A program made the position numbers and the translations under genes. This document shows, in pieces, positions 6,382 through 31,968 of a stretch of DNA of 32,000 nt. A model generated the notes under the pieces. That model worked only from the letters and a program-made list of their open reading frames with translations. It was not told the DNA's origin and made no database searches. The DNA comes from an uncultured Alphaproteobacteria bacterium (GTDB lineage: Bacteria; Pseudomonadota; Alphaproteobacteria; Rs-D84; CACZYB01): assembly GCA_934246625.1 (NCBI GenBank), contig CAKQHZ010000001.1, positions 270,001 to 302,000 of the forward strand, in the 5' to 3' direction. The stretch's first letter is position 1; each line of letters begins with the position of its first letter.

Positions 6382-7863
6382 TTATCCTCCTATATTTATA
6401 ATTGGTAATAACAAAATTGTTATAATAATAAGTAATGTTGTTATTTGATTTGTAAGTGGAATTACATTATTCCTTATTATATTATTAACGTCCATATCCA
6501 AAGATTGATTACTATAAATTACATCTATTGCATTTATTCCGATAAGGGAAACCAAAGATGTCATAATTATCAATCCTAAAACAAAAGATGCAAGAACTTC
6601 ATAATTTATATATGGAAATACGAAATAAAGGCATACACAGAATAAAAAGATGTATAAAGAGCTTCTGAAAAATAAATATACACTTTTGCGATTTAATTCC
6701 ATATATTTTGTTAAATTAAAAATCTTTAATAAATTAAATATGACAAGAACTATACTTAAAAACAAACCAATAATAACATTTGTTGAAAATATGTTTATAT
6801 CAAGTTGTCTTCGTGCAACAAATTCCAATGTTTCAAAAAAGATATAAAATAACACTATGTTGTTAAGTGATTTTGCAACATATCTATAGCTGTCTGAATT
6901 ATTATAAATTGATGATGTTGTGTATTTTAAGAATCTGTTGCCTATCATTGAAAGACATACAACTGCAAGTCCATAAAAATTTCCGAAATTAAGGGAAATA
7001 AAAATAATAGCAACCATCAAAAGTCCCGCCCAAAATGTAGAAGATACTATATTTGAAATAGGATATAAATATCTTAAATTTACTGGAATCTTCCTTTTAT
7101 CACCAAGTTTATTTATATTCAAATATGTCGCAAATTTTGTAATAAGATATGTTCCCAAAATTCCTATCATCAAGATAATAAAGATATTATAACTTAATGA
7201 AAAAGCAAATATAATCCAAAATGAAACCAAGATAAAACAAAATAAATCAAAGAATTCGTTCACATATTGTCTTACTTGTCTTTCAAATTTGTTTGTAAAA
7301 TATTCTAATATCAACCCAACATTTGAAAGCAAAAGATAAACTATACTTATAAAAAATGGGAAATTGATAAGTGTTGTTCGCTTTAATCCCGCACCAAAAT
7401 AACGTGTAATATCAACAATAGGTATAAGAGAAGCAAGAATCGCTGTTGTTTCTGTGATAACGATAAATAAAAATGTATTATCAATACCTTTTAAAATAAT
7501 ATTTGAAAAAAGTATTGAAAATTTTGACTTATATTTTGTAACTATATTGATAATTTTTATAATAATATTACAAAGTATCAAACCTCCAAGAATAAGCAAT
7601 GATGATAAAATACTATCAAGATTTTCAAAATAGTGATTATAGAGGAAATATAAACCTAAAACAGAGATTCCAGAAAAAAACACACTTGAAATCTCACTTA
7701 GTTTATATGCAAGGTTTTCATCTATATTTTTAAAAAATGTTTTATCCTTAAACCTTTTAAATAAAAGACTTAACAACAAAACAACGAATTCAAAAGAAAA
7801 AATCACACCTGCTATATTCATAATAGTCAATACTTGCATTGATGAAATTTCACTTAAAAGCAT
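6382..7863 (-). CDS. Polytopic integral membrane protein (about 12-14 predicted TM segments), function unknown
   Basis: A 493-codon ORF in extremely AT-rich DNA. AAGGAG SD 6 nt before the ATG. Hydrophobic segments alternate with short K/R/N-rich loops. I recognised no transporter or enzyme motif. The stop is 1 nt from the HD gene start. Confidence 0.7.
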   Translation of the reverse strand: MLLSEISSMQVLTIMNIAGVIFSFEFVVLLLSLLFKRFKDKTFFKNIDENLAYKLSEISSVFFSGISVLGLYFLYNHYFENLDSILSSLLILGGLILCNIIIKIINIVTKYKSKFSILFSNIILKGIDNTFLFIVITETTAILASLIPIVDITRYFGAGLKRTTLINFPFFISIVYLLLSNVGLILEYFTNKFERQVRQYVNEFFDLFCFILVSFWIIFAFSLSYNIFIILMIGILGTYLITKFATYLNINKLGDKRKIPVNLRYLYPISNIVSSTFWAGLLMVAIIFISLNFGNFYGLAVVCLSMIGNRFLKYTTSSIYNNSDSYRYVAKSLNNIVLFYIFFETLEFVARRQLDINIFSTNVIIGLFLSIVLVIFNLLKIFNLTKYMELNRKSVYLFFRSSLYIFLFCVCLYFVFPYINYEVLASFVLGLIIMTSLVSLIGINAIDVIYSNQSLDMDVNNIIRNNVIPLTNQITTLLIIITILLLPIINIGG

Positions 7864-9436: not shown

Positions 9437-9603
9437 TTCTATTTAGCAAAAAAAATACCATTTTATTAGCAAGGATATTATTACAGCACCTTGTTCGTTT
9501 AATAGCGATTACAATCAAAAAGAACGTAATACGATAATACAAGAAATAAAAAAAGTATAAAAATATTTAGAAAATAAATCTATAACGTTAGGTTTAGATT
9601 ATT

Positions 9604-9633
9604 AAAAAAATCCCCCTAGAAAGTTCTAGGGGG
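9604..9633 (-). terminator. Intrinsic terminator of the ppiD-like gene
   Basis: The minus strand reads CCCCCTAG-aacttt-CTAGGGGG followed by ATTTTTTT, about 20 nt after the stop. Confidence 0.75.
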
Positions 9634-12049: not shown

Positions 12050-12084
12050 AATAAAAGAAAAGCTCCATAATGGAGCTTTTTTTA
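12050..12084. terminator. Bidirectional intrinsic terminator shared by the convergent tpiA and ankyrin genes
   Basis: AAAGCTCCA-taa-TGGAGCTTT is flanked by a T-run on the + strand (TTTTTTA) and by TTCTTTTATTTT on the - strand. The ankyrin stop codon lies in the tail. Confidence 0.7.
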
Positions 12085-12570
12085 TCTTTGATTTGTATTT
12101 AGATTTATAACTTGTTTTACCTGATGTTCATAATTTTCCAAAATTGATACAATCTTAGCAGAACTTTCCTTTAACTCATCATCTGCAAATTTATTTGTTA
12201 TTTTGGCATAGGAAAGAGGAGTCATATCATAAGTATCCTTTGATAAAATATCAATTTTATTTTTTACAAGAAAATCAACCATTTCTATTTTTTGATTGAT
12301 AATTGCAATATACAATGCTGTGCGTTTATCAATATCAACTGAATTAACATTTAAACCAAGTTGCAATAAAAGTTTTGCAATTTCAGTATTACCAAAGTAA
12401 GCAGCATAATGAAGGTATGACCAATGCAAAGCATCTTGTTCCAAAACCACTGATTCTGATGCAAGCAATTTTTTCAAAGTTGCTACATCATTATATCTAA
12501 TACAATCCAAAATCATTGAAAATTTTGATTGTGAAATGTCGTTATCAACTTTTTCCATAGTATGCTCCAT
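12082..12570 (-). CDS. Ankyrin-repeat protein (about 3 ANK repeats)
   Basis: ANK consensus is visible in SYLHYAAYFGNTEIAKLLLQLGLNVNSVD, KRTALYIAIINQKIEMVDFLVKNKIDILSKD and DMTPLSYA. The true start may be the second ATG (12558), which has GGAG 6 nt upstream. No signal peptide. Confidence 0.85.
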   Translation of the reverse strand: MEHTMEKVDNDISQSKFSMILDCIRYNDVATLKKLLASESVVLEQDALHWSYLHYAAYFGNTEIAKLLLQLGLNVNSVDIDKRTALYIAIINQKIEMVDFLVKNKIDILSKDTYDMTPLSYAKITNKFADDELKESSAKIVSILENYEHQVKQVINLNTNQR

Positions 12571-12704: not shown

Positions 12705-13394
12705 ATGAAAAAATATATTACAAAATTTATGATTGTATGTGCTTGTCTTTTGCAAACTGTAAATGCAAATGCTAGTGTTTTTTCTTTGTGGGAAAACGAA
12801 GATGAAGAATACAAAATGAAGGTTGGGTCAAAAGAAACAACAAAAAAAACGGAAACAACTCCTCTCAAAACACCTACAGAAACTCTTAAATCTTCTTTAC
12901 AAGAAACTGTTGTAATGCCTTCTCAAGTTAATAACACTATTGCTTTACCAAATTATTATACAAGCAATAATAACGACAATTATAATATGATTGACTATGA
13001 TACTATTCAAGCAGAACGCAGTATCCAAGATTCCGAAGTTTTAAATTCTATTGATAAATGGCAACTTGGTATCAAAAATGTGTTTTGGGAAAACTATCGT
13101 GGCAATAATATAAGAATTGAAATGTTAAGAAATAATCGTGATTTAAAGGAAATGCGTCTTAAATTCGTTCAATCTCAAGATATGATTGCGGACCCTGATG
13201 GTTCAATTTCCGATATGTTGAATAAAGTTGCTGAACAAGTTATGAAAAGAACTTGCGGTAAAAAATCAAAACAATCAATTATCCTTTATGAACGCCCATC
13301 TATCGAGCTTGTAAAGGAAACAACTTATGATAATTATAAGATAATTGCAAAGGGAACTTCCTTAAAAGAATATGGTTTTAGATGTATTTATTAA
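12705..13394 (+). CDS. Secreted hypothetical protein
   Basis: AGGAG SD. Signal peptide MKKYITKFMIVCACLLQTVNANA. A T/E/K-rich linker is followed by a globular C-terminal region. No recognisable motif. Confidence 0.6.
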   Translation: MKKYITKFMIVCACLLQTVNANASVFSLWENEDEEYKMKVGSKETTKKTETTPLKTPTETLKSSLQETVVMPSQVNNTIALPNYYTSNNNDNYNMIDYDTIQAERSIQDSEVLNSIDKWQLGIKNVFWENYRGNNIRIEMLRNNRDLKEMRLKFVQSQDMIADPDGSISDMLNKVAEQVMKRTCGKKSKQSIILYERPSIELVKETTYDNYKIIAKGTSLKEYGFRCIY

Positions 13395-14603: not shown

Positions 14604-15209
14604 ATGGCAAATATTTTACTTATCTATGGACACCCCAAAACACCAAAAAGTTTTAATTTTGATTTAAAAGAAAAATTGGTAGAGGCATTGAAACAACACG
14701 GACACAATGTCCTTGTTCGTGATTTATATGAAATAAGTTTCAATCCGTTATTATCATCAAAAGATTTGGAACTTATTCACAACGGACAAATTTCCGAAGA
14801 TATAAGAAAAGAGCAAGAATTTATTAAAAATGCAGACACTATTATATTTATCTATCCTATATGGTGGGCGGGACAACCTGCAATTATAAAGGGATATATT
14901 GACCGAGTATTCAGCTATGGTTTTGCCTATATGTATAAGGGTGGCAAAGTCATAGGACTTCTTCCAGATAAAAAAGCAATTATCATAAATTCAAATGGAA
15001 ACCCAAGTGCACTTTATAAAAAAAATGATTTTTACAATGCTATAAAGTTGCTTGTGGATAAGGGAATTTTTGCCTTTTGTGGATTTTCAAAAATAAAGCA
15101 TTTATTTTATGGTGATATGTCAACAAAAAGTGATGATGATAAAAGCAAGGATATAAACAACGCTATTGATGAAACAATTATTGAAATAGAAGCAAAAAAT
15201 ATGGATTAA
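14604..15209 (+). CDS. Flavodoxin-like-fold NAD(P)H dehydrogenase (quinone) (Flavodoxin_2; NQO/MdaB/KefF-type)
   Basis: ILLIYGHPKTPKSFN at the N-terminus and FIYPIWWAGQPAIIKGYIDRVF are typical of PF02525 proteins. AAGGAG SD. Confidence 0.8.
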   Translation: MANILLIYGHPKTPKSFNFDLKEKLVEALKQHGHNVLVRDLYEISFNPLLSSKDLELIHNGQISEDIRKEQEFIKNADTIIFIYPIWWAGQPAIIKGYIDRVFSYGFAYMYKGGKVIGLLPDKKAIIINSNGNPSALYKKNDFYNAIKLLVDKGIFAFCGFSKIKHLFYGDMSTKSDDDKSKDINNAIDETIIEIEAKNMD

Positions 15210-15248
15210 AAAATACCCCCTGTTATTGCTAAGGGGGTATAATTTTTA
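15208..15248. terminator. Bidirectional intrinsic terminator between the convergent quinone reductase gene and Cys-rich gene 1
   Basis: ATACCCCCT-gttattgcta-AGGGGGTAT has a T-run after it on the - strand (TTTTTT) and TAATTTTT after it on the + strand. Confidence 0.7.
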
Positions 15249-15890
15249 ATAACAATTAAAACTTATCGTTATTGAAGCTCCTTCTAAACATTTTTTATAC
15301 TTTTCCCTTCTTTCGGACATTATACTGGAACAACTTTGTTCATTACAATATGTGTTTATCGTGCAAGAAGTTGAAATAATATCCCTTATACTAAATTCAG
15401 ACAGACTAGCACTTTGCCCATGGTATTCAGTTGATTTTATATATCTCTTTTGTGAGTTTTCTGTAGAATCCCAGGTTATTTTATATGTTTTGTTGCTAGC
15501 ATCTAGTGTTGCAACCAATGTATATGATGAATCATCTTTTTCTTTATACACATATACTATTGTGCAACAGAGATTACCGGATTGAGAGAAACCGGAATCG
15601 CAAGCCCAGGAGCAAGAGTCGGAGGTTGCGTTAGAAGTGAAGTGGGAGTTTGCTGGTTTGCTTTGGCATGGGGAACAGAAAGAGGCTGAACTGCTTGAGT
15701 AAGTGCCTGTTGGACAGGCTTCACAGCTTGAGGCGGCTCCCTTTGAAAATGTGCCTGCACTACAACTTTTGCATTGACCACTTTCTGCATAAGTGCCGGC
15801 TGGGCATGGTGTGCATTGATAAAAATTTTGGGCGAAGGCTGGGCTTGACATTACTCCCATTATGCCCGCTATTAGTATTTCTTTTTTCAT
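15246..15890 (-). CDS. Secreted cysteine-rich protein with three tandem CxxCxxGT[YF] repeats (ephrin-receptor-like / GCC2_GCC3-type pattern)
   Basis: AAAGGAG SD. Signal peptide ...MSSPAFA/QN. Repeats CTPCPAGTYAESGQ, CKSCSAGTFSKGAASS and CEACPTGTYSSSSASF are followed by CSPC. I count 17 Cys in total. Terminator immediately downstream. Confidence 0.75.
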   Translation of the reverse strand: MKKEILIAGIMGVMSSPAFAQNFYQCTPCPAGTYAESGQCKSCSAGTFSKGAASSCEACPTGTYSSSSASFCSPCQSKPANSHFTSNATSDSCSWACDSGFSQSGNLCCTIVYVYKEKDDSSYTLVATLDASNKTYKITWDSTENSQKRYIKSTEYHGQSASLSEFSIRDIISTSCTINTYCNEQSCSSIMSERREKYKKCLEGASITISFNCY

Positions 15891-15967
15891 ATTTTTCTCC
15901 TTTGGTTCGTTCTTATTCGGGGGACTTTTTGCCTTTGAAACCTCCCCTTTTCGGTTTCAATTCGGGA

Positions 15968-16008
15968 GGGTGGAAGCGAAGACCATGAACAAAAAAAAAC
16001 TTCCACCC
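15968..16008. repeat. 9-bp inverted repeat (GGGTGGAAG ... CTTCCACCC) with a 23-nt loop containing an A9/T9 tract, between the two Cys-rich genes
   Basis: Read directly. It begins 7 nt after the stop of the upstream (16015-16437) gene on the minus strand. The T-run is in the loop rather than the tail, so it is not a canonical terminator. A second 8-bp hairpin, TTGAAACC-n10-GGTTTCAA, lies at about 15935-15960. Confidence 0.5.
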
Positions 16009-16014
16009 ATAACT

Positions 16015-16437
16015 TTAAAAACTTTTTGTGTCTGGGTTGTATCGCCTTAACAAATACCCATTTTGGTTTGTGCAAGTTGATGAGTTTTTGAGTTGTAAAA
16101 TTCGTCCAGAAGGGCAGTTGCCGTTGGATACATAAATTCTTATGTATCCGTTTGGGCAAACTAAAGGTTCGCAACTTTTGTAATCAGAGGTTGCGAAGGA
16201 GCCGGAAGTGCAATTTTCGCAAAGTCGAGAAGAGGGGCTGTAGAATTTAGAGCGGTTTTCACAGTCGCAGATACCGTTTTTGTAAGCGACTTTTTGATGG
16301 CAGTTGCCAGGTGTTGGCACGCAGTATTTAGCGAGCACATCGGAAAGAGGAGATGCTGTTGCGATTGAGGTTGTGGCGATATTTATGGCGAAAGTGCCAC
16401 ATAGGACAGCCACTGCGAGTTGAAATTTTTTATACAT
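16015..16437 (-). CDS. Secreted cysteine-rich protein, probable distant paralogue of the 15246-15890 product
   Basis: AGGGGG SD. Signal peptide ...TSIATA/SP. There are 10 Cys in the mature part, including one CENCTSGSFATSDYKSC unit matching the CxxCxxG[ST][YF] repeat. Confidence 0.7.
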   Translation of the reverse strand: MYKKFQLAVAVLCGTFAINIATTSIATASPLSDVLAKYCVPTPGNCHQKVAYKNGICDCENRSKFYSPSSRLCENCTSGSFATSDYKSCEPLVCPNGYIRIYVSNGNCPSGRILQLKNSSTCTNQNGYLLRRYNPDTKSF

Positions 16438-16680
16438 TTTACTACCCCCTTTTTTTATTTAAAGGATTGAAGGTCCCGCATTGGCATAGAGTTGATGTTG
16501 CACTTGCTTTTGCGAAGGTCCTACCCCCTTTATAAAAATAATTCCACGTATCAAAGATAGTGGTCGGGCAGTTCAGAAATCACAAAAAAGAATGATCCTA
16601 TAGCTTTTAGAGTATAAAGAATATACTCCTGTTGTATGACTATATGCTCCCCAACCAACAAAGGCTGGGGCTTTGGGTAT

Positions 16681-16705
16681 AAAAAAAAGATACTGCAAGA
16701 GTATC
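16681..16705 (-). terminator. Weak hairpin plus U8, a possible terminator of a short non-coding transcript
   Basis: The minus strand reads GATACT-cttgc-AGTATC followed by TTTTTTTT. The stem is only 6 bp and AT-rich. Confidence 0.35.
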
Positions 16706-16828
16706 TGATGGTTATTTTTTAATACCCTCTTTTTTGAAAGGCTTCTGACGGCCCACATCATCTTTGATGCTAAATACAGATATTTCCTGTATCTAAAATT
16801 TGCTATAACATAGATTCGGAAAAAACAA

Positions 16829-16860
16829 TAAAAAAAATCCCCTTTTAAACAAGGGGATTT
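16829..16860 (-). terminator. Intrinsic terminator of the 16881-18035 lipoprotein gene
   Basis: The minus strand reads AAATCCCCTT-gttt-AAAAGGGGATTT followed by TTTTTTTATTGTTTTTT. Confidence 0.75.
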
Positions 16861-16880: not shown

Positions 16881-18035
16881 TTATTTTTCGAATACACGAA
16901 CTTCATCTGTCATTACATCATCTGTTTGCATTGTTAATGCTACACGTGATGCAGGAAGTCCCATTTCTGTTAATGTTGTCATTACATCTTTTACATTTTT
17001 CTTTATTGAACCATTTGCTTTGCCTTGTGGAGCTACACCAACAACTTCAAATGTTGCAGATGGGTTTCTTTCCAATACACGGCTTAATGCTTGGTATAAA
17101 GGTTCTGCGAAATCAACTGATGCCTTATCGAATTTTACAACGATTACTGGACGAGTTGATGAAGGAGCAACAATTTCTACTGGTGTAGATGTTGCACGCA
17201 TTGGTTTTAATGAAAAAGAATCTCTTTCTTTTAGCATTACTTTACGAGAAGGACGATTTGCCTTTCGTGGAGCCATACCATAATCTTGAGCTGTTTCATT
17301 TACAAATGCTTCGTATGATTCATCACTTGAAAACATTGAGCCACCATCAGCAAAGAAATCTGTTGAACCTGCTGCACCATAAAGTTTTCCATTTTTAATG
17401 TTAAGAGCAACATCATTTAAGTTGAATTTTTCATTATCAACGTATGCTTGTTGTCTGTCAGCTTCTTGATTTAATTGACGAGCAAAAATTGCAATGTTTG
17501 AACCAATTTGTTTTGCTTCTTCTTCAAGAGCCTTTAATTGTTTGTGGTCATCTTCTGTTGCACCACGGATTTTGTATGATGCTTGGATAGAACCAACCAT
17601 ATAATCAACCATTGATTGATCAGATTCAACATCTGCTACAAGACGTTTAATGTCAAATGCAATATTGTTAATTTTTTCTAATTTAGCACGTGCATCTTTC
17701 CATTCGTCCATAAGTTCAGGATTTCCAGGTGTTGTGCCAAGTTGCAATTTTGAATTGATTTGAGCAACTGCAGTTCTGTAATCTGATACTGCTGTGTTTG
17801 TATCATTTCTCATTTGTTGAAGAGTTGTTTTTCTTCCATCAACTAAACTTTTTAATTGTTCTTGTTCTGATTTGAAATTAGCAATTTTATTTTTCATAAA
17901 TGTGCCATCAAATGCAGTATGTTTTGGTTGATTTGCTTCTACCTTTTTTTCACCACCAAAAAGAGTATCTGAAGTAGAAGAACATGCCCCTAAGATTACT
18001 ACTGATAGTAATGCAAGTATGTTTTTTATTTTCAT
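16881..18035 (-). CDS. Lipoprotein with a long coiled-coil-like region and a small C-terminal alpha/beta (OmpA-like-ish) module; function unknown
   Basis: Lipobox VILGAC. The Q/E/K/L-rich central part looks like heptad repeats. A Ser/Pro linker follows. C-terminus VVKFDKASVDFAEPLYQALSRVLERNPSATFEVVGVAP...LTEMGLPASRVAL. AGGGG SD. Confidence 0.7.
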   Translation of the reverse strand: MKIKNILALLSVVILGACSSTSDTLFGGEKKVEANQPKHTAFDGTFMKNKIANFKSEQEQLKSLVDGRKTTLQQMRNDTNTAVSDYRTAVAQINSKLQLGTTPGNPELMDEWKDARAKLEKINNIAFDIKRLVADVESDQSMVDYMVGSIQASYKIRGATEDDHKQLKALEEEAKQIGSNIAIFARQLNQEADRQQAYVDNEKFNLNDVALNIKNGKLYGAAGSTDFFADGGSMFSSDESYEAFVNETAQDYGMAPRKANRPSRKVMLKERDSFSLKPMRATSTPVEIVAPSSTRPVIVVKFDKASVDFAEPLYQALSRVLERNPSATFEVVGVAPQGKANGSIKKNVKDVMTTLTEMGLPASRVALTMQTDDVMTDEVRVFEK

Positions 18036-26491: not shown

Positions 26492-27976
26492 ATGAAAAAA
26501 ACTAATGCACTTTTAAATTATATTTATGCTCAACGATGGTGTAATTTCAAAGAGGATATTATCAATGGAAATGTAAAATCTGTTGTATTAGAAAGTGCAC
26601 CATTTGATGATGATAAAAAATTTTTTATCCTTGGAAAGGCGGAAATAAAAAATAAATCACCAAAGTTTTTTATTATGCCTCTTGCAAAGGGAATAATGGC
26701 AAATGAAATGCCTCTTCGATATAAAAAATTTAAGGTATTTGATGCCCTTAAATCAAGCAATTATTGGTCCTCAATTATGAATGCGACTTGTCTTAATAAT
26801 TCGCTTTCTGTGTCAAAAGAATATAATCTTGTATATCAATCTTGGACCGATTTGGATTTTATTACAAATCACTTGAATGATACATCAAAACCTCTTAATG
26901 CAGAACAAAGTAATACAACTTTGATAATTGGAAATAGGACTTTAGCTTTTAAGCAACAACGCCTTATTGAATTTTCAAATTCTGTTAATCCAGAAGTTGA
27001 AATGAATTACAACCTTATGAAAAGTAAATGTTCTGTTATTCCAAAAACATACGGGCATTTATTTTTGATTTCACCAAAGGGGGAAAATGCCTTTGTTGGA
27101 ATTGTGCAAGAATTTATTCCAAACCATGGGGATTTGTGGGCAATACTCCTTAAACGAATTTATGAAATTTTAATTAAAGCCATAAAAAATAATAAGGATA
27201 AAATTGCATCTCGAGATATTACTCCACTTAAACATTTGATGAATGACCTTGGGGTAAGGACATCTGAAATGCTTAAATGTCTTTCTTCATTTAAAGGAAG
27301 TGATGATTTAAAGGTTGAAGCAATTACAACAAAGTATATCAAAAACTATACTGCTGAATTAAAAAATCAAGCCGAAGAGGCAAAAAACAAAATCTATCAA
27401 AATATAGAATATTTACCAGAGGTGATAAGGCAAAGAATCTCCCCTCTTCTTGAAAATTGGGATAAATATATTAACAAGTTTATTCAAGAAAACATATCCG
27501 AAATTTCAAAGCGAAAGCGAAAAGGAAAATTGATGCGGGTGCATGGAGATTTCCATCTTGGGCAAGTGATACTTTCTGAAAATAATGAACTTAAGTTTAT
27601 TGATTTTTCCGGTGAACCAAATCTTTCATTTGCAAAACGAAAGGAAAAGCACCCGTATATGTATGATATTGCAGGTATGTATCGCTCTATCAATGGGTAT
27701 TTGGAAGCATCAGTTGTAATTAAATATGCTATTGATGAATTTGGTGAACTTAATAAGGATAAATTGATACTGGGTTATAAAATTTTACATCCGGTAATTG
27801 AAAAGTTGACTGAAAGTTTTCTTAAACCTCAAAATATTGATAAGCAATGGTTAAACCTTGAAATACTAAGACGAAATCTTTATGAAATAAGTTATGAAAT
27901 TTCATACAGACCTAAAATGCTTTCGGTGCCAGTCTTTAATTTACTTAATCTTTTGAATGTGGATTATAAAATTTAA
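26492..27976 (+). CDS. mak: Maltokinase-like kinase (Mak/Pep2 family, APH-fold)
   Basis: RVHGDFHLGQVIL and IDFSGEPNLSFAKRKEKHPYMYDIAGMYRSINGY closely follow the maltokinase catalytic-loop and DFEGEP motifs. It is divergent from malQ. Confidence 0.75.
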   Translation: MKKTNALLNYIYAQRWCNFKEDIINGNVKSVVLESAPFDDDKKFFILGKAEIKNKSPKFFIMPLAKGIMANEMPLRYKKFKVFDALKSSNYWSSIMNATCLNNSLSVSKEYNLVYQSWTDLDFITNHLNDTSKPLNAEQSNTTLIIGNRTLAFKQQRLIEFSNSVNPEVEMNYNLMKSKCSVIPKTYGHLFLISPKGENAFVGIVQEFIPNHGDLWAILLKRIYEILIKAIKNNKDKIASRDITPLKHLMNDLGVRTSEMLKCLSSFKGSDDLKVEAITTKYIKNYTAELKNQAEEAKNKIYQNIEYLPEVIRQRISPLLENWDKYINKFIQENISEISKRKRKGKLMRVHGDFHLGQVILSENNELKFIDFSGEPNLSFAKRKEKHPYMYDIAGMYRSINGYLEASVVIKYAIDEFGELNKDKLILGYKILHPVIEKLTESFLKPQNIDKQWLNLEILRRNLYEISYEISYRPKMLSVPVFNLLNLLNVDYKI

Positions 27977-28261: not shown

Positions 28262-28597
28262 ATGGTTCAAAGAAAGCGTATGTCCTTACTAGATGATTTA
28301 GAAATGCAAAGATGCACTACAAATAGAATGCTTACAAAGTTTTTATTGATTCTATGTATCGTGTTAATTTTATACATAACCTTTAACATTATAAATCGTG
28401 CAAAGGAACGTCGTGAGGTAGATTTGCTTGTTTCTGAAATTCAAAATGAAATTTTTATAAAACAATGTAATCTTAATAAAATGTATTGCTGTAGCTATAA
28501 AGACTCTGTTGCTTGCGATAAATGGGTTGAAAATAATTGTTTGGAAAGTGATGGAGCATTAGAAATAAATTGCTCTAATATACGAATAAATAATTGA
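28262..28597 (+). CDS. Small single-pass membrane protein with a Cys-rich extracytoplasmic tail, hypothetical
   Basis: Strong AAGGAGG SD. A basic N-terminus is followed by the TM segment FLLILCIVLILYITFNII, then 7 Cys in the last 50 residues. No known motif. Confidence 0.5.
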   Translation: MVQRKRMSLLDDLEMQRCTTNRMLTKFLLILCIVLILYITFNIINRAKERREVDLLVSEIQNEIFIKQCNLNKMYCCSYKDSVACDKWVENNCLESDGALEINCSNIRINN

Positions 28598-28998: not shown

Positions 28999-29028
28999 AG
29001 GTATTACAATGTAATACCTCTTTTTTTA
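28999..29028. terminator. Bidirectional intrinsic terminator between the convergent small genes and murE
   Basis: AGGTATTAC-aat-GTAATACCT is followed by CTTTTTTTATT on the + strand and by TTTTGTCTTTTGTT on the - strand. The murE stop lies in the + strand T-tail. Confidence 0.65.
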
Positions 29029-31968
29029 TTCTTCTTCCTTTAATAAATCCAAAACAGTTTGTTGGTCGGTGTATGGAATATGATTATCCTTTATAACAAT
29101 ATAGTCCTCGTGTCCCTTACCAGCAATCAAAATAACATCTCCCTTTGATGCAAGCTCTATTGCTTTTTTGATTGCATCTTTTCGACCTGTTTTAATTTCA
29201 ATAGCCTTTGGACAATGTGCCATTACTTCGTTTCGAATTTTTTGTGCATCTTCAAAACGAGGAGAATCATCTGTTAAAATTGCAATATCTGCAAGTTGTT
29301 GTGCCGCTTCACCAAGTTCTTGTCGTCTTCGTGTTTCATACACATCACCACAAGTTGAAAATACACAAATAATTTTTTTATCGGTCATTGAACGAAGAGT
29401 TTTTAATGTATTGACAAGAGCATCACCCTTATATGCAAAATCAACATAGATAGAAGCTCCCTTTTTCGTATCACCCATATATTCAAGTCTTCCAACGGCA
29501 TTTCTTACTTCACCAAGTCGTGGTAAAACATTTTGCCATGATGGAGTTGTGGCAATAACCATACCCAATGCACAAAGGAGATTGTAAAGTTGGAATGAAC
29601 CCAAAATTTTTAAATCAAAATGATATTTATGTCCGAATAATTCGACTTCGACATCTTGACCTGTAAGAGAAATTTTTTGTGAAAGTATCTTTAATTCCTT
29701 ACCATTTTTTCCGTATGAGAAAACTTTGATGCCTCGCTTATCACAAATATCTTTTAAAAATTCGTATTCTGGAATATCTGCATTTAAAACGGCTGTGCCA
29801 TCAGATGATAAATTTTCACGGAAAAGTTTTGACTTTGAATAAAGATAGCTTTTTGCATCACCATAAAAATCAACGTGGTCGGTTCCAAGGTTTGTGAAAC
29901 CCGCACTGGCAATTTTTATATTTTCCATACGAAGTTGGTCAAGCCCATGTGAAGAAAGTTCAATAGCGGCATTATTAACACCTTTTTCCTTGAAATACTT
30001 CAAAAACTTATAAACTTCACCATTAACAGGAGTTGTATAGTCAGAACCACTATACTTTATAACTTGTTTTTTTGAATAAACATTTTCAGCAATAATGCCT
30101 ATTGTTCCAGAACTTATTGCAGGAAGTCCCAATAATGCCCAAAGTTGACGGGTAAAATCAACGACAGAAGATTTTCCACTGCTTCCTGTGATTGCAACTA
30201 TTGTATCAGGTTGAGTTTTATTGTAAAAATTATAAATAATATCGGCAAAAGTTTTACGTGTATTATCAACCTTTATAACGACTATATTTTTATCATTTAT
30301 CAATTTTTGGGTTGCATCGTTAAAATTATAATCTTTTTCAACAATAACTGCCTTTGCTCCATTTTTAATGGCACTTTCTGTGTAATCGGCACCATTTACA
30401 GTAAAACCATTTATACCAATAAAAATTGAACCTTCTATTATTGTGTTGCTGTCAGAAGAAACTCGATAAATTGGAGTTGATGGAATATCCTTTAAATTAA
30501 AACCTGATTTCAAAAGAAGTTCATCAAGTGGCACAGAATGAGGAGCCAATTTATTGCGGATAAATTCCTTGTCCTTTTCATACATAGTTCCACAAATAAT
30601 GATTGAATCCCAATGGCGAGATGTATCAATGACTTCGTCTATTGCCTTATATCTGTTTGGAATAACGGTTGCCTTTGGACAATACTTTACAATAGTATCA
30701 CGAATATGTTTTGGATCTTCGGTTCGTGGATTATCATCAACAATAATTACTGTATCAGCATATTCATTTAAAACCTTTCCCATTTCAATACGACGAATGT
30801 CCGGTCTGTCGCCACTGCAACCTGCAATACAAATAAGATTATGGTCGACATAAGGTCTGAACTCTGTTAAAAGTTTTTTAAGTCCATCACCATTGTGTCC
30901 AAAGTCAACATAAATTTTTGCACCATTTGGAGATGTGCCAACATATTCAATACGTCCCTTTTCATTTTTCAAATTTGAAAGGTGTGGCAAAACCTTTTCC
31001 CAATCATCAACACTTGTCATAAATAAACCTAAAGCACACATAAAATTATATACCTGAAATTCAGTTACAAGATTAAGTGTTAAATCGTATATTTTACCAA
31101 AGATAGAAAGTTTTACCTTTTGTGAATAATTTTCTATTTTATACTCTAAAAGTTGAATATCGGCACCTGCGTTTTTACCATAGGTAATTGTTTTGATTCC
31201 TCGAGATTTACAAACATCAATTATTTTAGATGCACGAGAATCATCAATATTTATTACAGCAGTTCCATCACTTTCCAATAATTCAGAAAAAAGACGAAGT
31301 TTAGCATTAAAATATTCGTCAATAGTTTTATGATAATCAAGATGGTCATTGGAAATATTTGTAAAACCAGCGGATTTAATTTTTATATAATCTACACGAT
31401 TTTGAATAATTCCATGTGATGAAGTTTCAAGTGCAACATTTGTAATGCCTTCGTTGTATAAATTTTGCAAATTTTTATGTAAATCTATGGCATCAGGTGT
31501 TGTCAAAGTTTTTTGACCTACGTTGTTTGAAGTTTGAACTCCTACTGTGCCAATAGAAGCTCCATTGATACCAACAAAATCCCACATTTGCCTTACGAAA
31601 TTGACAATAGAACTTTTTCCATTTGTGCCAGTAACTGCCAAAATAAAATCTGGTTTATTTGGATAAAAAATATTTGAAACTTTTGCCTCGGTTTCACGAA
31701 TATTTTCAACAAAAATAAATGGAATGTTTTGATATTTAGATGGGTCAATATTATCTTTATTATCATTGCCGATAATAATTGCAACTGCACCATTTGAAAT
31801 TGCATTATCAATAAAATCTGCACCATTAAAATTTATTCCCTTTATCGCAATAAAGATATTTCCAGTTTGAATTTTTGATGAATTATTTTGAAGACCTGTA
31901 ATTTCAATATCGTTATTAAAATTAACTGTATTTGATTTTATATTATTTAATATTTCAGATAGTTTCAT
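29026..31968 (-). CDS. murE: Tandem MurE-MurE fusion: two complete UDP-MurNAc-tripeptide synthetase (Mur ligase) modules in one 980-aa polypeptide
   Basis: Module 1 (aa 1 to about 478; nt about 30535-31968) has VTGTNGKSS, LTTPDA, ETSSHG, FTNISNDHLDYH and DDNPRTEDP. Module 2 (aa about 479-980; nt 29029 to about 30534) has ITGSSGKSS, YTTPVN, ELSSHG, FTNLGTDHVDFY, DDSPRFED and AGKGHEDY. The frame is continuous with no internal stop. Confidence 0.85.
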   Translation of the reverse strand: MKLSEILNNIKSNTVNFNNDIEITGLQNNSSKIQTGNIFIAIKGINFNGADFIDNAISNGAVAIIIGNDNKDNIDPSKYQNIPFIFVENIRETEAKVSNIFYPNKPDFILAVTGTNGKSSIVNFVRQMWDFVGINGASIGTVGVQTSNNVGQKTLTTPDAIDLHKNLQNLYNEGITNVALETSSHGIIQNRVDYIKIKSAGFTNISNDHLDYHKTIDEYFNAKLRLFSELLESDGTAVINIDDSRASKIIDVCKSRGIKTITYGKNAGADIQLLEYKIENYSQKVKLSIFGKIYDLTLNLVTEFQVYNFMCALGLFMTSVDDWEKVLPHLSNLKNEKGRIEYVGTSPNGAKIYVDFGHNGDGLKKLLTEFRPYVDHNLICIAGCSGDRPDIRRIEMGKVLNEYADTVIIVDDNPRTEDPKHIRDTIVKYCPKATVIPNRYKAIDEVIDTSRHWDSIIICGTMYEKDKEFIRNKLAPHSVPLDELLLKSGFNLKDIPSTPIYRVSSDSNTIIEGSIFIGINGFTVNGADYTESAIKNGAKAVIVEKDYNFNDATQKLINDKNIVVIKVDNTRKTFADIIYNFYNKTQPDTIVAITGSSGKSSVVDFTRQLWALLGLPAISSGTIGIIAENVYSKKQVIKYSGSDYTTPVNGEVYKFLKYFKEKGVNNAAIELSSHGLDQLRMENIKIASAGFTNLGTDHVDFYGDAKSYLYSKSKLFRENLSSDGTAVLNADIPEYEFLKDICDKRGIKVFSYGKNGKELKILSQKISLTGQDVEVELFGHKYHFDLKILGSFQLYNLLCALGMVIATTPSWQNVLPRLGEVRNAVGRLEYMGDTKKGASIYVDFAYKGDALVNTLKTLRSMTDKKIICVFSTCGDVYETRRRQELGEAAQQLADIAILTDDSPRFEDAQKIRNEVMAHCPKAIEIKTGRKDAIKKAIELASKGDVILIAGKGHEDYIVIKDNHIPYTDQQTVLDLLKEEE

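Follow-up and report, generated by a model that had tools for sequence, protein, structure and literature searches.

Introduction

Extracellular cysteine-rich modules of the eukaryotic type are rare in bacteria, where they are usually read as a sign of host interaction. In polymorphic toxin systems, a constant N-terminus is followed by a variable C-terminal toxin and, downstream, by an immunity gene. The poxviral homologues of tumour necrosis factor receptors (TNFRs), CrmB-E, are secreted proteins that carry N-terminal cysteine-rich domains (CRDs) and an extra C-terminal domain. The Pfam domain Ephrin_rec_like (PF07699) is regarded as eukaryote-born, its rare bacterial cases being ascribed to horizontal transfer (PMC6993872); Ilumatobacter YM304_37510 and the Endozoicomonas ephrins, rare bacterial instances of Eph/ephrin-type domains, are read in the same way (PMC6993872). 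Here we analyse two neighbouring genes for secreted cysteine-rich proteins in a 32,000-nucleotide stretch of contig CAKQHZ010000001.1 (positions 270,001 to 302,000; hereafter the window, G+C ~30%). Their host is an uncultured, roughly 30%-GC alphaproteobacterium of the human gut, known from human-gut metagenomes only. The gene pair is one copy of a three-part accessory cassette, composed of a structured leader, a partner gene and a repeat-protein gene; judging from the sequences of its copies, the cassette probably mediates a variable interaction outside the cell. A module of eukaryotic type sits here in a compact, strain-variable, recombining cassette of a gut bacterium.

Results

The gene pair and its boundaries

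Gene 1 encodes the partner protein, P2 (140 residues), and gene 2 the repeat protein, P1 (214 residues). The parts of the cassette in the window are the following.

16438..16834, minus strand: conserved non-coding leader of 397 nt, homologous among sites A, B, C and D
16015..16437, minus strand: gene 1, small secreted cysteine-rich partner P2, 140 residues (ORF list)
16354-16437, minus strand: P2 signal peptide, residues 1-28 (n/h/c layout, by inspection)
15891..16014, minus strand: spacer between gene 1 and gene 2, 43% GC, holding the ribosome-binding site of gene 2 (alignment of cassette copies)
15246..15890, minus strand: gene 2, repeat protein P1, 214 residues, including the stop codon at the 15246 end (ORF list)
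15831-15890, minus strand: P1 signal peptide, residues 1-20 (n/h/c layout, by inspection)
15564..15890, minus strand: constant half of gene 2 (signal peptide, three CxxCxxGT[YF] units, junction module), ~90% conserved among nine family proteins
15564-15677, minus strand: P1 junction module, C-x2-C-x-SKPANSHFTSNATSDSCSWACDSGF..GNLCC, TNFR-like (from sequence)
15246..15563, minus strand: variable C-terminal domain of gene 2, residues 110-214, type 1, 5 Cys, with the stop codon; homology breaks at ~15560
15208..15248, both strands: bidirectional intrinsic terminator common to gene 2 and the convergent flavodoxin-like gene (folding; also in empty alleles)
16835..16860, minus strand: intrinsic terminator of the upstream 384-residue gene (10 pairs and a T-run; -14.3 kcal/mol)

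A first-pass annotation of this DNA, made from its letters alone, had reported two same-strand genes with Sec-type signal peptides and Shine-Dalgarno (SD) sequences. The open reading frames (ORFs) lie exactly where it placed them, and the SD sequences are AAGGAG for P1 (15888-15904) and AGGGGG for P2 (16435-16456). By inspection of n-region charge, h-region and AxA motif, P1 starts with MKKEILIAGIMGVMSSPAFA, followed by QN, with Sec-type cleavage between AFA and Q; P2 starts with MYKKFQLAVAVLCGTFAINIATTSIATA, followed by SP, with Sec-type cleavage between ATA and S. Neither has a lipobox.

The same annotation had bracketed the pair between two terminators. Both hairpins are real: the one at 15208-15248 folds with -16.6 kcal/mol on the minus and -18.6 kcal/mol on the plus strand (z about -3.3), has a T-run on each side, and forms the right (3') edge of the cassette insertion point at the window's site. 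The hairpin at 16835-16860 forms the left (5') edge and is found in empty and occupied alleles, but it belongs to the upstream 384-residue gene and is separated from gene 1 by the 397-nt leader.

The cassette is present or absent at several sites

Within one species, the cassette occupies at least four alternative sites, with flanks 99% identical to the window. These contigs derive from human-gut metagenomes (Hadza hunter-gatherers and others).

Site A: between the flavodoxin-like gene and the 384-residue gene; the window's own site
Site B: between NMO and SurA-like genes; empty in the window, where a 160-bp AT-rich filler (9445-9604) lies between the NMO and SurA-like terminators
Site C: between RecG and MerR genes (contig neighbourhoods)
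Site D: between TraG-like and L35-L20 genes (contig neighbourhoods)

Site B is occupied in four contigs (L008, L009, L010 and L015), which carry a 1.6-kb cassette instead of the filler, again between flanks of 99% identity. Of the ten listed arrangements around the neighbouring LOG gene, seven have no cassette at site A. In these empty alleles the same two terminators stand ~45 bp apart and the junctions fall at the terminators: the cassette is placed exactly between pre-existing terminators. The junctions show neither target-site duplications nor terminal inverted repeats, and neither the 32-kb window nor the surroundings of any copy contain an integrase, transposase, HUH or recombinase gene.

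Several origins were considered and set aside. An integron gene cassette is at odds with the lack of any integrase or recombinase domain in the window ORFs or beside the copies, and with cassettes that are single and dispersed. A phage origin found no viral-contig relatives of protein or leader and no PHROGs match, and a defence origin no PADLOC match. The first-pass annotation had also linked the pair to a nearby ankyrin-repeat gene (12082-12570); this link falls, as the Ank gene has the same place and context in alleles with and without the cassette at site A.

Two neighbourhoods deserve a separate description. The site D cassette (L106 1-3096; L107/L108 1-3039) lies directly downstream of genes for an SMC/AAA-like ATPase and a TraG/VirD4-type coupling protein, an arrangement seen in two related organisms; it may be the remnant of a conjugative element. 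At site A, the 384-residue gene (16881-18035, minus strand) stands beside the insertion point in all strains; its N-terminus resembles a lipobox (VVILGAC), and neither Pfam nor NCBIfam gives a match.

Constant and variable parts of mosaic copies

DNA homology among the copies extends from the leader through the P2 gene and the spacer into the P1 gene, up to nt ~15560 (residue ~110), where it stops abruptly. The window cassette is 89-95% identical in DNA to the site C copies and 83% to site B. Among the C-terminal halves of the P1 family, at least four unrelated types can be told apart (P0001/P0004-like, CCPSGK, L016/L107 and MAG035), each a domain of only ~75-130 residues, and no type has a match in Pfam, NCBIfam, PADLOC or PHROGs.

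The spacer between the two genes occurs as two alleles common to different sites: 38 positions join L012 (site C) and L008 (site B) against winA, L011C and L013C. Blocks of the leader are shuffled among copies as well. Since the copies are mosaic, their sequences indicate that segments are exchanged by recombination between sites.

In one contig, L096 (7900-9600), a chimeric cassette with P0003-type repeats and a P0008-type tail has the left flank of site A on one side and the right flank of site D on the other. This contig is either a chromosomal rearrangement mediated by cassette copies or a chimera of metagenome assembly.

The repeats of P1 and their class

The mature N-terminal part of P1 consists of three units, CTPCPAGTYAESGQ, CKSCSAGTFSKGAASS and CEACPTGTYSSSSASF, followed by CSPC (residues 26-75, nt 15666-15815); a fourth, longer module comes after them, CSPCQSKPANSHFTSNATSDSCSWACDSGFSQSGNLCC. 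These units, the single unit of P2, and the counts of 17 cysteines in P1 and 10 in mature P2 are all as first described. The feature that marks PF07699, a repeated C-x2-C-x2-G-[TS]-[YFW] at ~14-17-residue spacing, is thereby present in three consecutive units of P1 and one of P2.

With hmmscan, P1 scores 22.6 bits against Ephrin_rec_like (E=9.5e-05), the gathering cut-off being 23.1. Its relatives exceed the cut-off: P0004 with 25.6 bits, P0052 with 32.8, L106 with 33.6, L016 with 36.7, MAG035 with 50.3, L107 with 79 and P0080 with 81.2. A profile built from nine family proteins and searched against the PDB matched Chlamydomonas Mst1 (8tx1, annotated as ephrin type A/B receptor-like) in its ephrin-receptor-like repeats, with E=3.6e-13 and eight matched stretches. 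Neither P1 nor P2 matches TNFR_c6 (PF00020), even at E<=10, and the nearest TNFR-type model, TNFR_ELAPOR1_6th, is weak with 18.3 bits against a cut-off of 33.2. Altogether, sequence profiles place the P1 repeats in the ephrin-receptor-like/TNFR-like class, as the first-pass annotation had proposed, with a likeness beyond chance.

The AlphaFold2 (AF2) model of P1 has a mean predicted local distance difference test (pLDDT) score of 62, with 76-82 over the repeats (residues 30-70). Foldseek, run with this weak model, lists as best matches the EphA2 CRD (E=7.8e-3), ELAPOR1, 4-1BB and OX40, none of them at E<=1e-3.

In precomputed Pfam annotation, DUF8003 (PF26010) is assigned to P0001, P0002 and P0004-P0009, as well as to the gene in L001-L004; we found no mention of this domain in the literature. 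NCBIfam holds no model for P1, P2 or their relatives. No tandem repeats were found at the DNA level in the repeat region, so a recent DNA-level expansion of the units is rejected.

An exhaustive profile search returned 3,329 cluster representatives, nearly all of them giant multi-repeat proteins, with small P1-type proteins amounting to a handful. Among 5.8 billion proteins, close homologues of P1 form only ~10 clusters, and the genes belong to the accessory genome: they are not ubiquitous housekeeping proteins, one outcome that the first-pass annotation had held would count against it. The best eukaryote-like matches outside the family cover 23-27% of the query. The junction module (C-x-NKPxNS-x-YTS..CSW-x-C..GY..G..C) recurs as a tandem repeat unit in the giant proteins P0016, P0018, P0054 and P0084; giant proteins rich in this module look bacterial.

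The cysteine count is odd in 19 of 20 large family proteins (11-45 Cys), despite their unrelated C-terminal domains. This parity suggests that the P1 family may keep a conserved cysteine that is unpaired or takes part in an intermolecular bond.

The partner protein

P2 contains 11 cysteines, 10 of which lie in its mature part, and its CxxCxxGS[FY] unit, CENCTSGSFATSDYKSC, is found at nt 16171-16221. The mature protein begins with a conserved L-x-KYC[VI]P. Among cassettes at different sites, P2 is 85-95% identical.

As a single query, P2 has no match outside its own cluster. It aligns with the partner of the distant relative L016 at 38% identity (E=6e-26); compared by BLASTP with the upstream ORF of MAG035 it gives no significant match (E=0.38), a homology later backed by profile search. 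This profile search gathered 34 clusters, all of 95-179 residues and without Pfam domains, whose names are only "hypothetical protein [Alphaproteobacteria bacterium]" and "[bacterium]". Mature partners of the window type have 10 cysteines, those of the MAG035 type 7-8.

The partner gene is always directly upstream of the repeat gene. In L106 and L107/L108, the gene of an Ephrin_rec_like protein follows directly after it; at locus L105 (P0168) the contig stops just past the partner gene and is uninformative on the next one. P0092 is a natural fusion, its N-terminus matching P2 (E=3e-9) and the remainder matching P1 (E=4e-24). Because one relative unites both in a single chain, the fusion supports the view that P1 and P2 may act together.

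The AF2 core of P2, computed with 34 sequences, has a pLDDT of 82-92. Its fold matches (TNFR, ELAPOR1, the CRD of mGluR, Meckelin and, at E=0.81, CrmE) are all weak and non-significant.

A composition split within one gene

The G+C content at third codon positions (GC3) of the 23 other genes in the window ranges from 0.11 to 0.23. The P2 gene has a GC3 of 0.42 and residues 22-110 of P1 one of 0.40, against 0.17 expected from their amino acids and the codon usage of the window; residues 111-214 of P1 are host-like, at 0.20. The first-pass annotation had counted 32 G+C in 15601-15660 and 8 in 7501-7560, numbers that we recover, and had asked whether amino-acid content could explain the shift. 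Since observed values of 0.40-0.42 stand against 0.17 expected, the shift is real and no artefact of that content.

The split is found in nine of nine cassette copies examined, including those of distant species, with GC3 values of 0.35-0.42 for the small gene, 0.28-0.45 for the N-terminal part of the large gene and 0.14-0.25 for its C-terminal part. It is therefore a maintained property and not the decaying trace of a recent import. Gene conversion explains the raised GC3 of the constant part no less well than import does, and continual, possibly GC-biased, conversion among copies is the most likely source, rather than fresh import. The earlier annotation had considered horizontal acquisition; a recent or direct transfer from a eukaryote is not supported, given this maintenance in nine copies and the 23-27% query coverage of the best eukaryote-like matches.

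Two stop-free shadow ORFs, at 15650-15988 (plus strand, 112 residues) and 15557-15790 (minus strand, 77 residues), overlap the GC-rich repeat-coding DNA. They exist on both strands as first noted, and are by-products of local composition, not genes.

A structured leader better conserved than the proteins

The leader contains the following elements, all on the minus strand.

16772-16794: leader hairpin 1 (leader map)
16740-16754: box GCCGTCAGAAGCC (leader map)
16681-16707: hairpin and U-run; the stem sequence differs among copies, with pairing kept
16560..16672: structured core of ~110 nt (nhmmer and pairing test)
16443-16521: insertion of the duplication type, 79-82 nt, with a second SD-like AAAGGGGGTAG; in site A and B leaders, absent at site C

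The core folds into four helices, named P1 (GGUUGGG/CCCGACC), P2, nested P2a and P3, with conserved single-stranded AUACAAC and UCUGAAC. Hairpins of the leader differ among copies through compensatory changes. With nhmmer, the core is found in distant genomes, at 1.4e-13 in MAG035, 8e-36 in L106 and 2e-20 in L107/L108, where the proteins are only 25-42% identical; it lies at 6990-7102 of L006 (MAG035), 3244-3410 of L106 and 3240-3354 of L107.

In six diverged copies, the same six sequences from which the four-helix structure was derived, 96.5% of cells are paired, compared with 39-45% when the partners are slid. Five pairs are changed on both sides, which 9 of 500 shuffles reach, and 10 cells are changed on both sides, which none of 500 shuffles reaches. 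Altogether, the leader is a candidate new structured RNA that is better conserved than the proteins downstream of it.

Against Rfam sRNA-Xcc1 (RF02221), the leader scores 29.3 bits in the window and 25.3 in L011, with a gathering score of 53; the diverged leaders of L006 (MAG035) and L106 give no match at E<=1. With two copies below threshold and two without a match, membership in this family is not supported. An ORF within the leader (16573..16761) is rejected as coding, having frame-breaking indels between copies.

As to a possible sequestration of the SD, RNAalifold suggests that a CUGCCC can pair with the SD-like GGGGGU; all bases of this pairing are invariant and carry no covariation. As the insertion 16443-16521 is bounded by the repeated AAAGGGGGTAG, site A and B copies hold two SD-like boxes, and in L096 this place is expanded by another 25 nt. 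The hairpin and U-run at 16681-16707 may serve for attenuation, or else terminate a short transcript from upstream.

Other genes of the window

Three ORFs of the plus strand, at 12705-13394 (229 residues), 26492-27976 (494 residues) and 28262-28597 (111 residues), have no Pfam match. The ORF at 29026-31968 (minus strand, 980 residues) appears to be a fused murE-murF-type gene, because it contains two full sets of Mur ligase domains. The gene at 6382-7863 (minus strand) has the lowest GC of the window (24%), and precomputed annotation assigns it only a weak H+-PPase. No Dsb genes lie within the 32-kb window, a small scope that says little on the whole genome.

Discussion

A proposed constant stalk with a variable head

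We tentatively propose, as a plausible reading of the sequences, that a disulfide-stapled constant stalk and its partner form a scaffold which exposes a variable binding head to some target outside the cell, and that the leader controls this. After Sec export, both proteins would fold oxidatively into disulfide-stapled rods, and the constant stalk would form a scaffold with the conserved partner. The variable C-terminal domain would act as the specificity-determining head, directed at a molecule of host mucus, epithelium or the immune system, or at another microbe. Diversity would arise by head swapping and by gain or loss of copies, and the leader RNA would make expression conditional. A role of these proteins in host interaction, raised in the first-pass annotation, is likewise an inference.

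Several points weigh against this proposal. P1 of the window remains 0.5 bit under the PF07699 cut-off, its AF2 model is weak (mean pLDDT 62) and Foldseek gives no match at E<=1e-3. The window-type partner has an even number of cysteines (10), and is therefore not an obvious disulfide partner for the odd cysteine of P1. The presence of several copies per genome would follow from mosaicism and contig counts, not from a closed genome, and L096 may be an assembly chimera. Among the window ORFs near the genes, no secretion system or anchor is evident, only the Sec signal peptides.

Alternative explanations

A polymorphic-toxin or bacteriocin-like effector, whose constant N-terminal half would serve for delivery or as a stalk and whose variable C-terminal domain would be a toxin against competing bacteria, would account for the constant N-terminus, the variable C-terminus and the recombination among copies, and one distant repeat-bearing relative, P0016, comes near the Pretoxin-HINT threshold (26.4 bits, cut-off 27.7). 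We nevertheless find it unlikely. There is no gene after the variable domain, because the terminator follows within ~40 nt: no ORF fits between stop codon and terminator at any site, hence no downstream immunity gene. The sole companion gene, located upstream, retains 85-95% identity across copies whose C-termini are swapped, and therefore cannot encode a cognate immunity protein. No C-terminal type matches a toxin, PT-HINT, Pfam, NCBIfam or PADLOC entry, and these domains are small.

Two further explanations seem to us improbable to a greater degree, and about equally so. In the first, the proteins would be receptor mimics or decoys of eukaryotic origin, whose cysteine ladder binds a TNF-family or ephrin-like host ligand, as poxviral TNFR homologues do. 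The class match to Ephrin_rec_like and TNFR CRDs, the presumed eukaryotic birth of PF07699 (PMC6993872), the atypical GC3 of the constant part and the human-gut habitat all speak for it. However, P1 has no TNFR_c6 match and its nearest non-family matches cover only 23-27% of the query, while the family has diversified inside alphaproteobacterial metagenome-assembled genomes (MAGs), with a partner and a leader of its own. The GC3 signature is maintained across species without decay, and the junction module is abundant in giant, bacterial-looking proteins. In addition, the ladder is constant, and the variation lies in the C-terminus.

In the second, P1 and P2 would be ordinary periplasmic proteins (redox, metal-binding or envelope-structural, for example) with no outward-facing role. 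Their high cysteine content is compatible with this, as is the fact that, beyond the Sec signal peptides, neither a secretion system nor an anchor is evident in the vicinity. Such proteins would hardly be expected in a cassette that is present or absent among 99%-identical strains, in several copies and with swapped C-terminal domains; the family is also narrow, and NCBIfam has no model of it.

Least probable of all is a selfish mobile cassette in which the leader serves as a single-stranded-DNA recombination site, in the style of an integron attC or an IS200/IS605 end, and the proteins are cargo: the clean placement between terminators at several sites without target-site duplication, the covarying leader hairpins, their weak likeness to sRNA-Xcc1, an integron-cassette RNA, and the TraG/VirD4-like gene adjoining site D are offset by the lack of integrase, transposase and HUH genes both within the 32-kb window and next to every copy, of a matching element at the 3' end of the cassette and of viral matches, and homologous recombination through the flanks accounts for the polymorphism without a dedicated enzyme.

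Significance

The domain class of the P1 repeats is already known and the P1 family is already catalogued as a DUF. Our search of the literature turned up nothing on how the cassette is organised, on its dedicated partner, on head swapping, on the polymorphism of sites or on the leader. It is conceivable, if rather doubtful, that these together form an undescribed head-swapping system for secreted or surface proteins of uncultured gut Alphaproteobacteria, with a eukaryote-type stalk and a partner that present interchangeable binding heads, conversion between copies, gain and loss between terminators, and a new class of cis-acting leader that switches expression.

Should the heads bind targets of the host or of microbes, nature would have provided in this cassette a simple system of scaffold and head, and its presence would mark strain-level adaptation in the gut. 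The GC3 contrast within one gene in itself allows a clean test of GC-biased gene conversion in a bacterium of high AT content.

Comparison with known systems

The leader resembles sRNA-Xcc1, which lies upstream of symE in Xanthomonas integron cassettes, in that it too precedes a cassette-borne gene; its core can be aligned along the whole model and shares with it the outer stem, both inner hairpins and an AUACAA loop. It differs in its score, 29.3 and 25.3 bits with a gathering value of 53, and in that the MAG035 and L106 copies have no match.

With polymorphic toxin systems, the cassette shares an architecture of constant N- and variable C-terminus and the exchange of modules by recombination. 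In contrast to them, it has no downstream immunity gene and no recognised toxin or pre-toxin domain, and its partner lies upstream and does not co-vary. The poxviral CrmB-E proteins also join an N-terminal cysteine-rich ladder to an unrelated C-terminal domain; this is an analogy only, as the cassette proteins have no significant sequence or fold match to them.

P1 and its close relatives are assigned to DUF8003 (PF26010), a domain of unknown function, by precomputed annotation. They share the CxxCxxG[TS][YF] spacing with the Ephrin_rec_like proteins Mst1, ELAPOR1 and the EphA2 CRD, in which it builds extracellular disulfide ladders. Unlike these eukaryotic proteins, P1 is bacterial and tiny, with three units instead of 10-50 and a bacterial Sec signal peptide, and it comes with a swappable non-homologous domain, a partner gene and a leader, in an accessory cassette found at multiple sites.

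Finally, Ilumatobacter YM304_37510 and the Endozoicomonas ephrins (PMC6993872) resemble the proteins described here in being bacterial and carrying extracellular domains typical of eukaryotes. Those, however, are single proteins, whereas here we find, in gut Alphaproteobacteria, a diversified family that has a partner and a leader of its own, exists in several copies and recombines.

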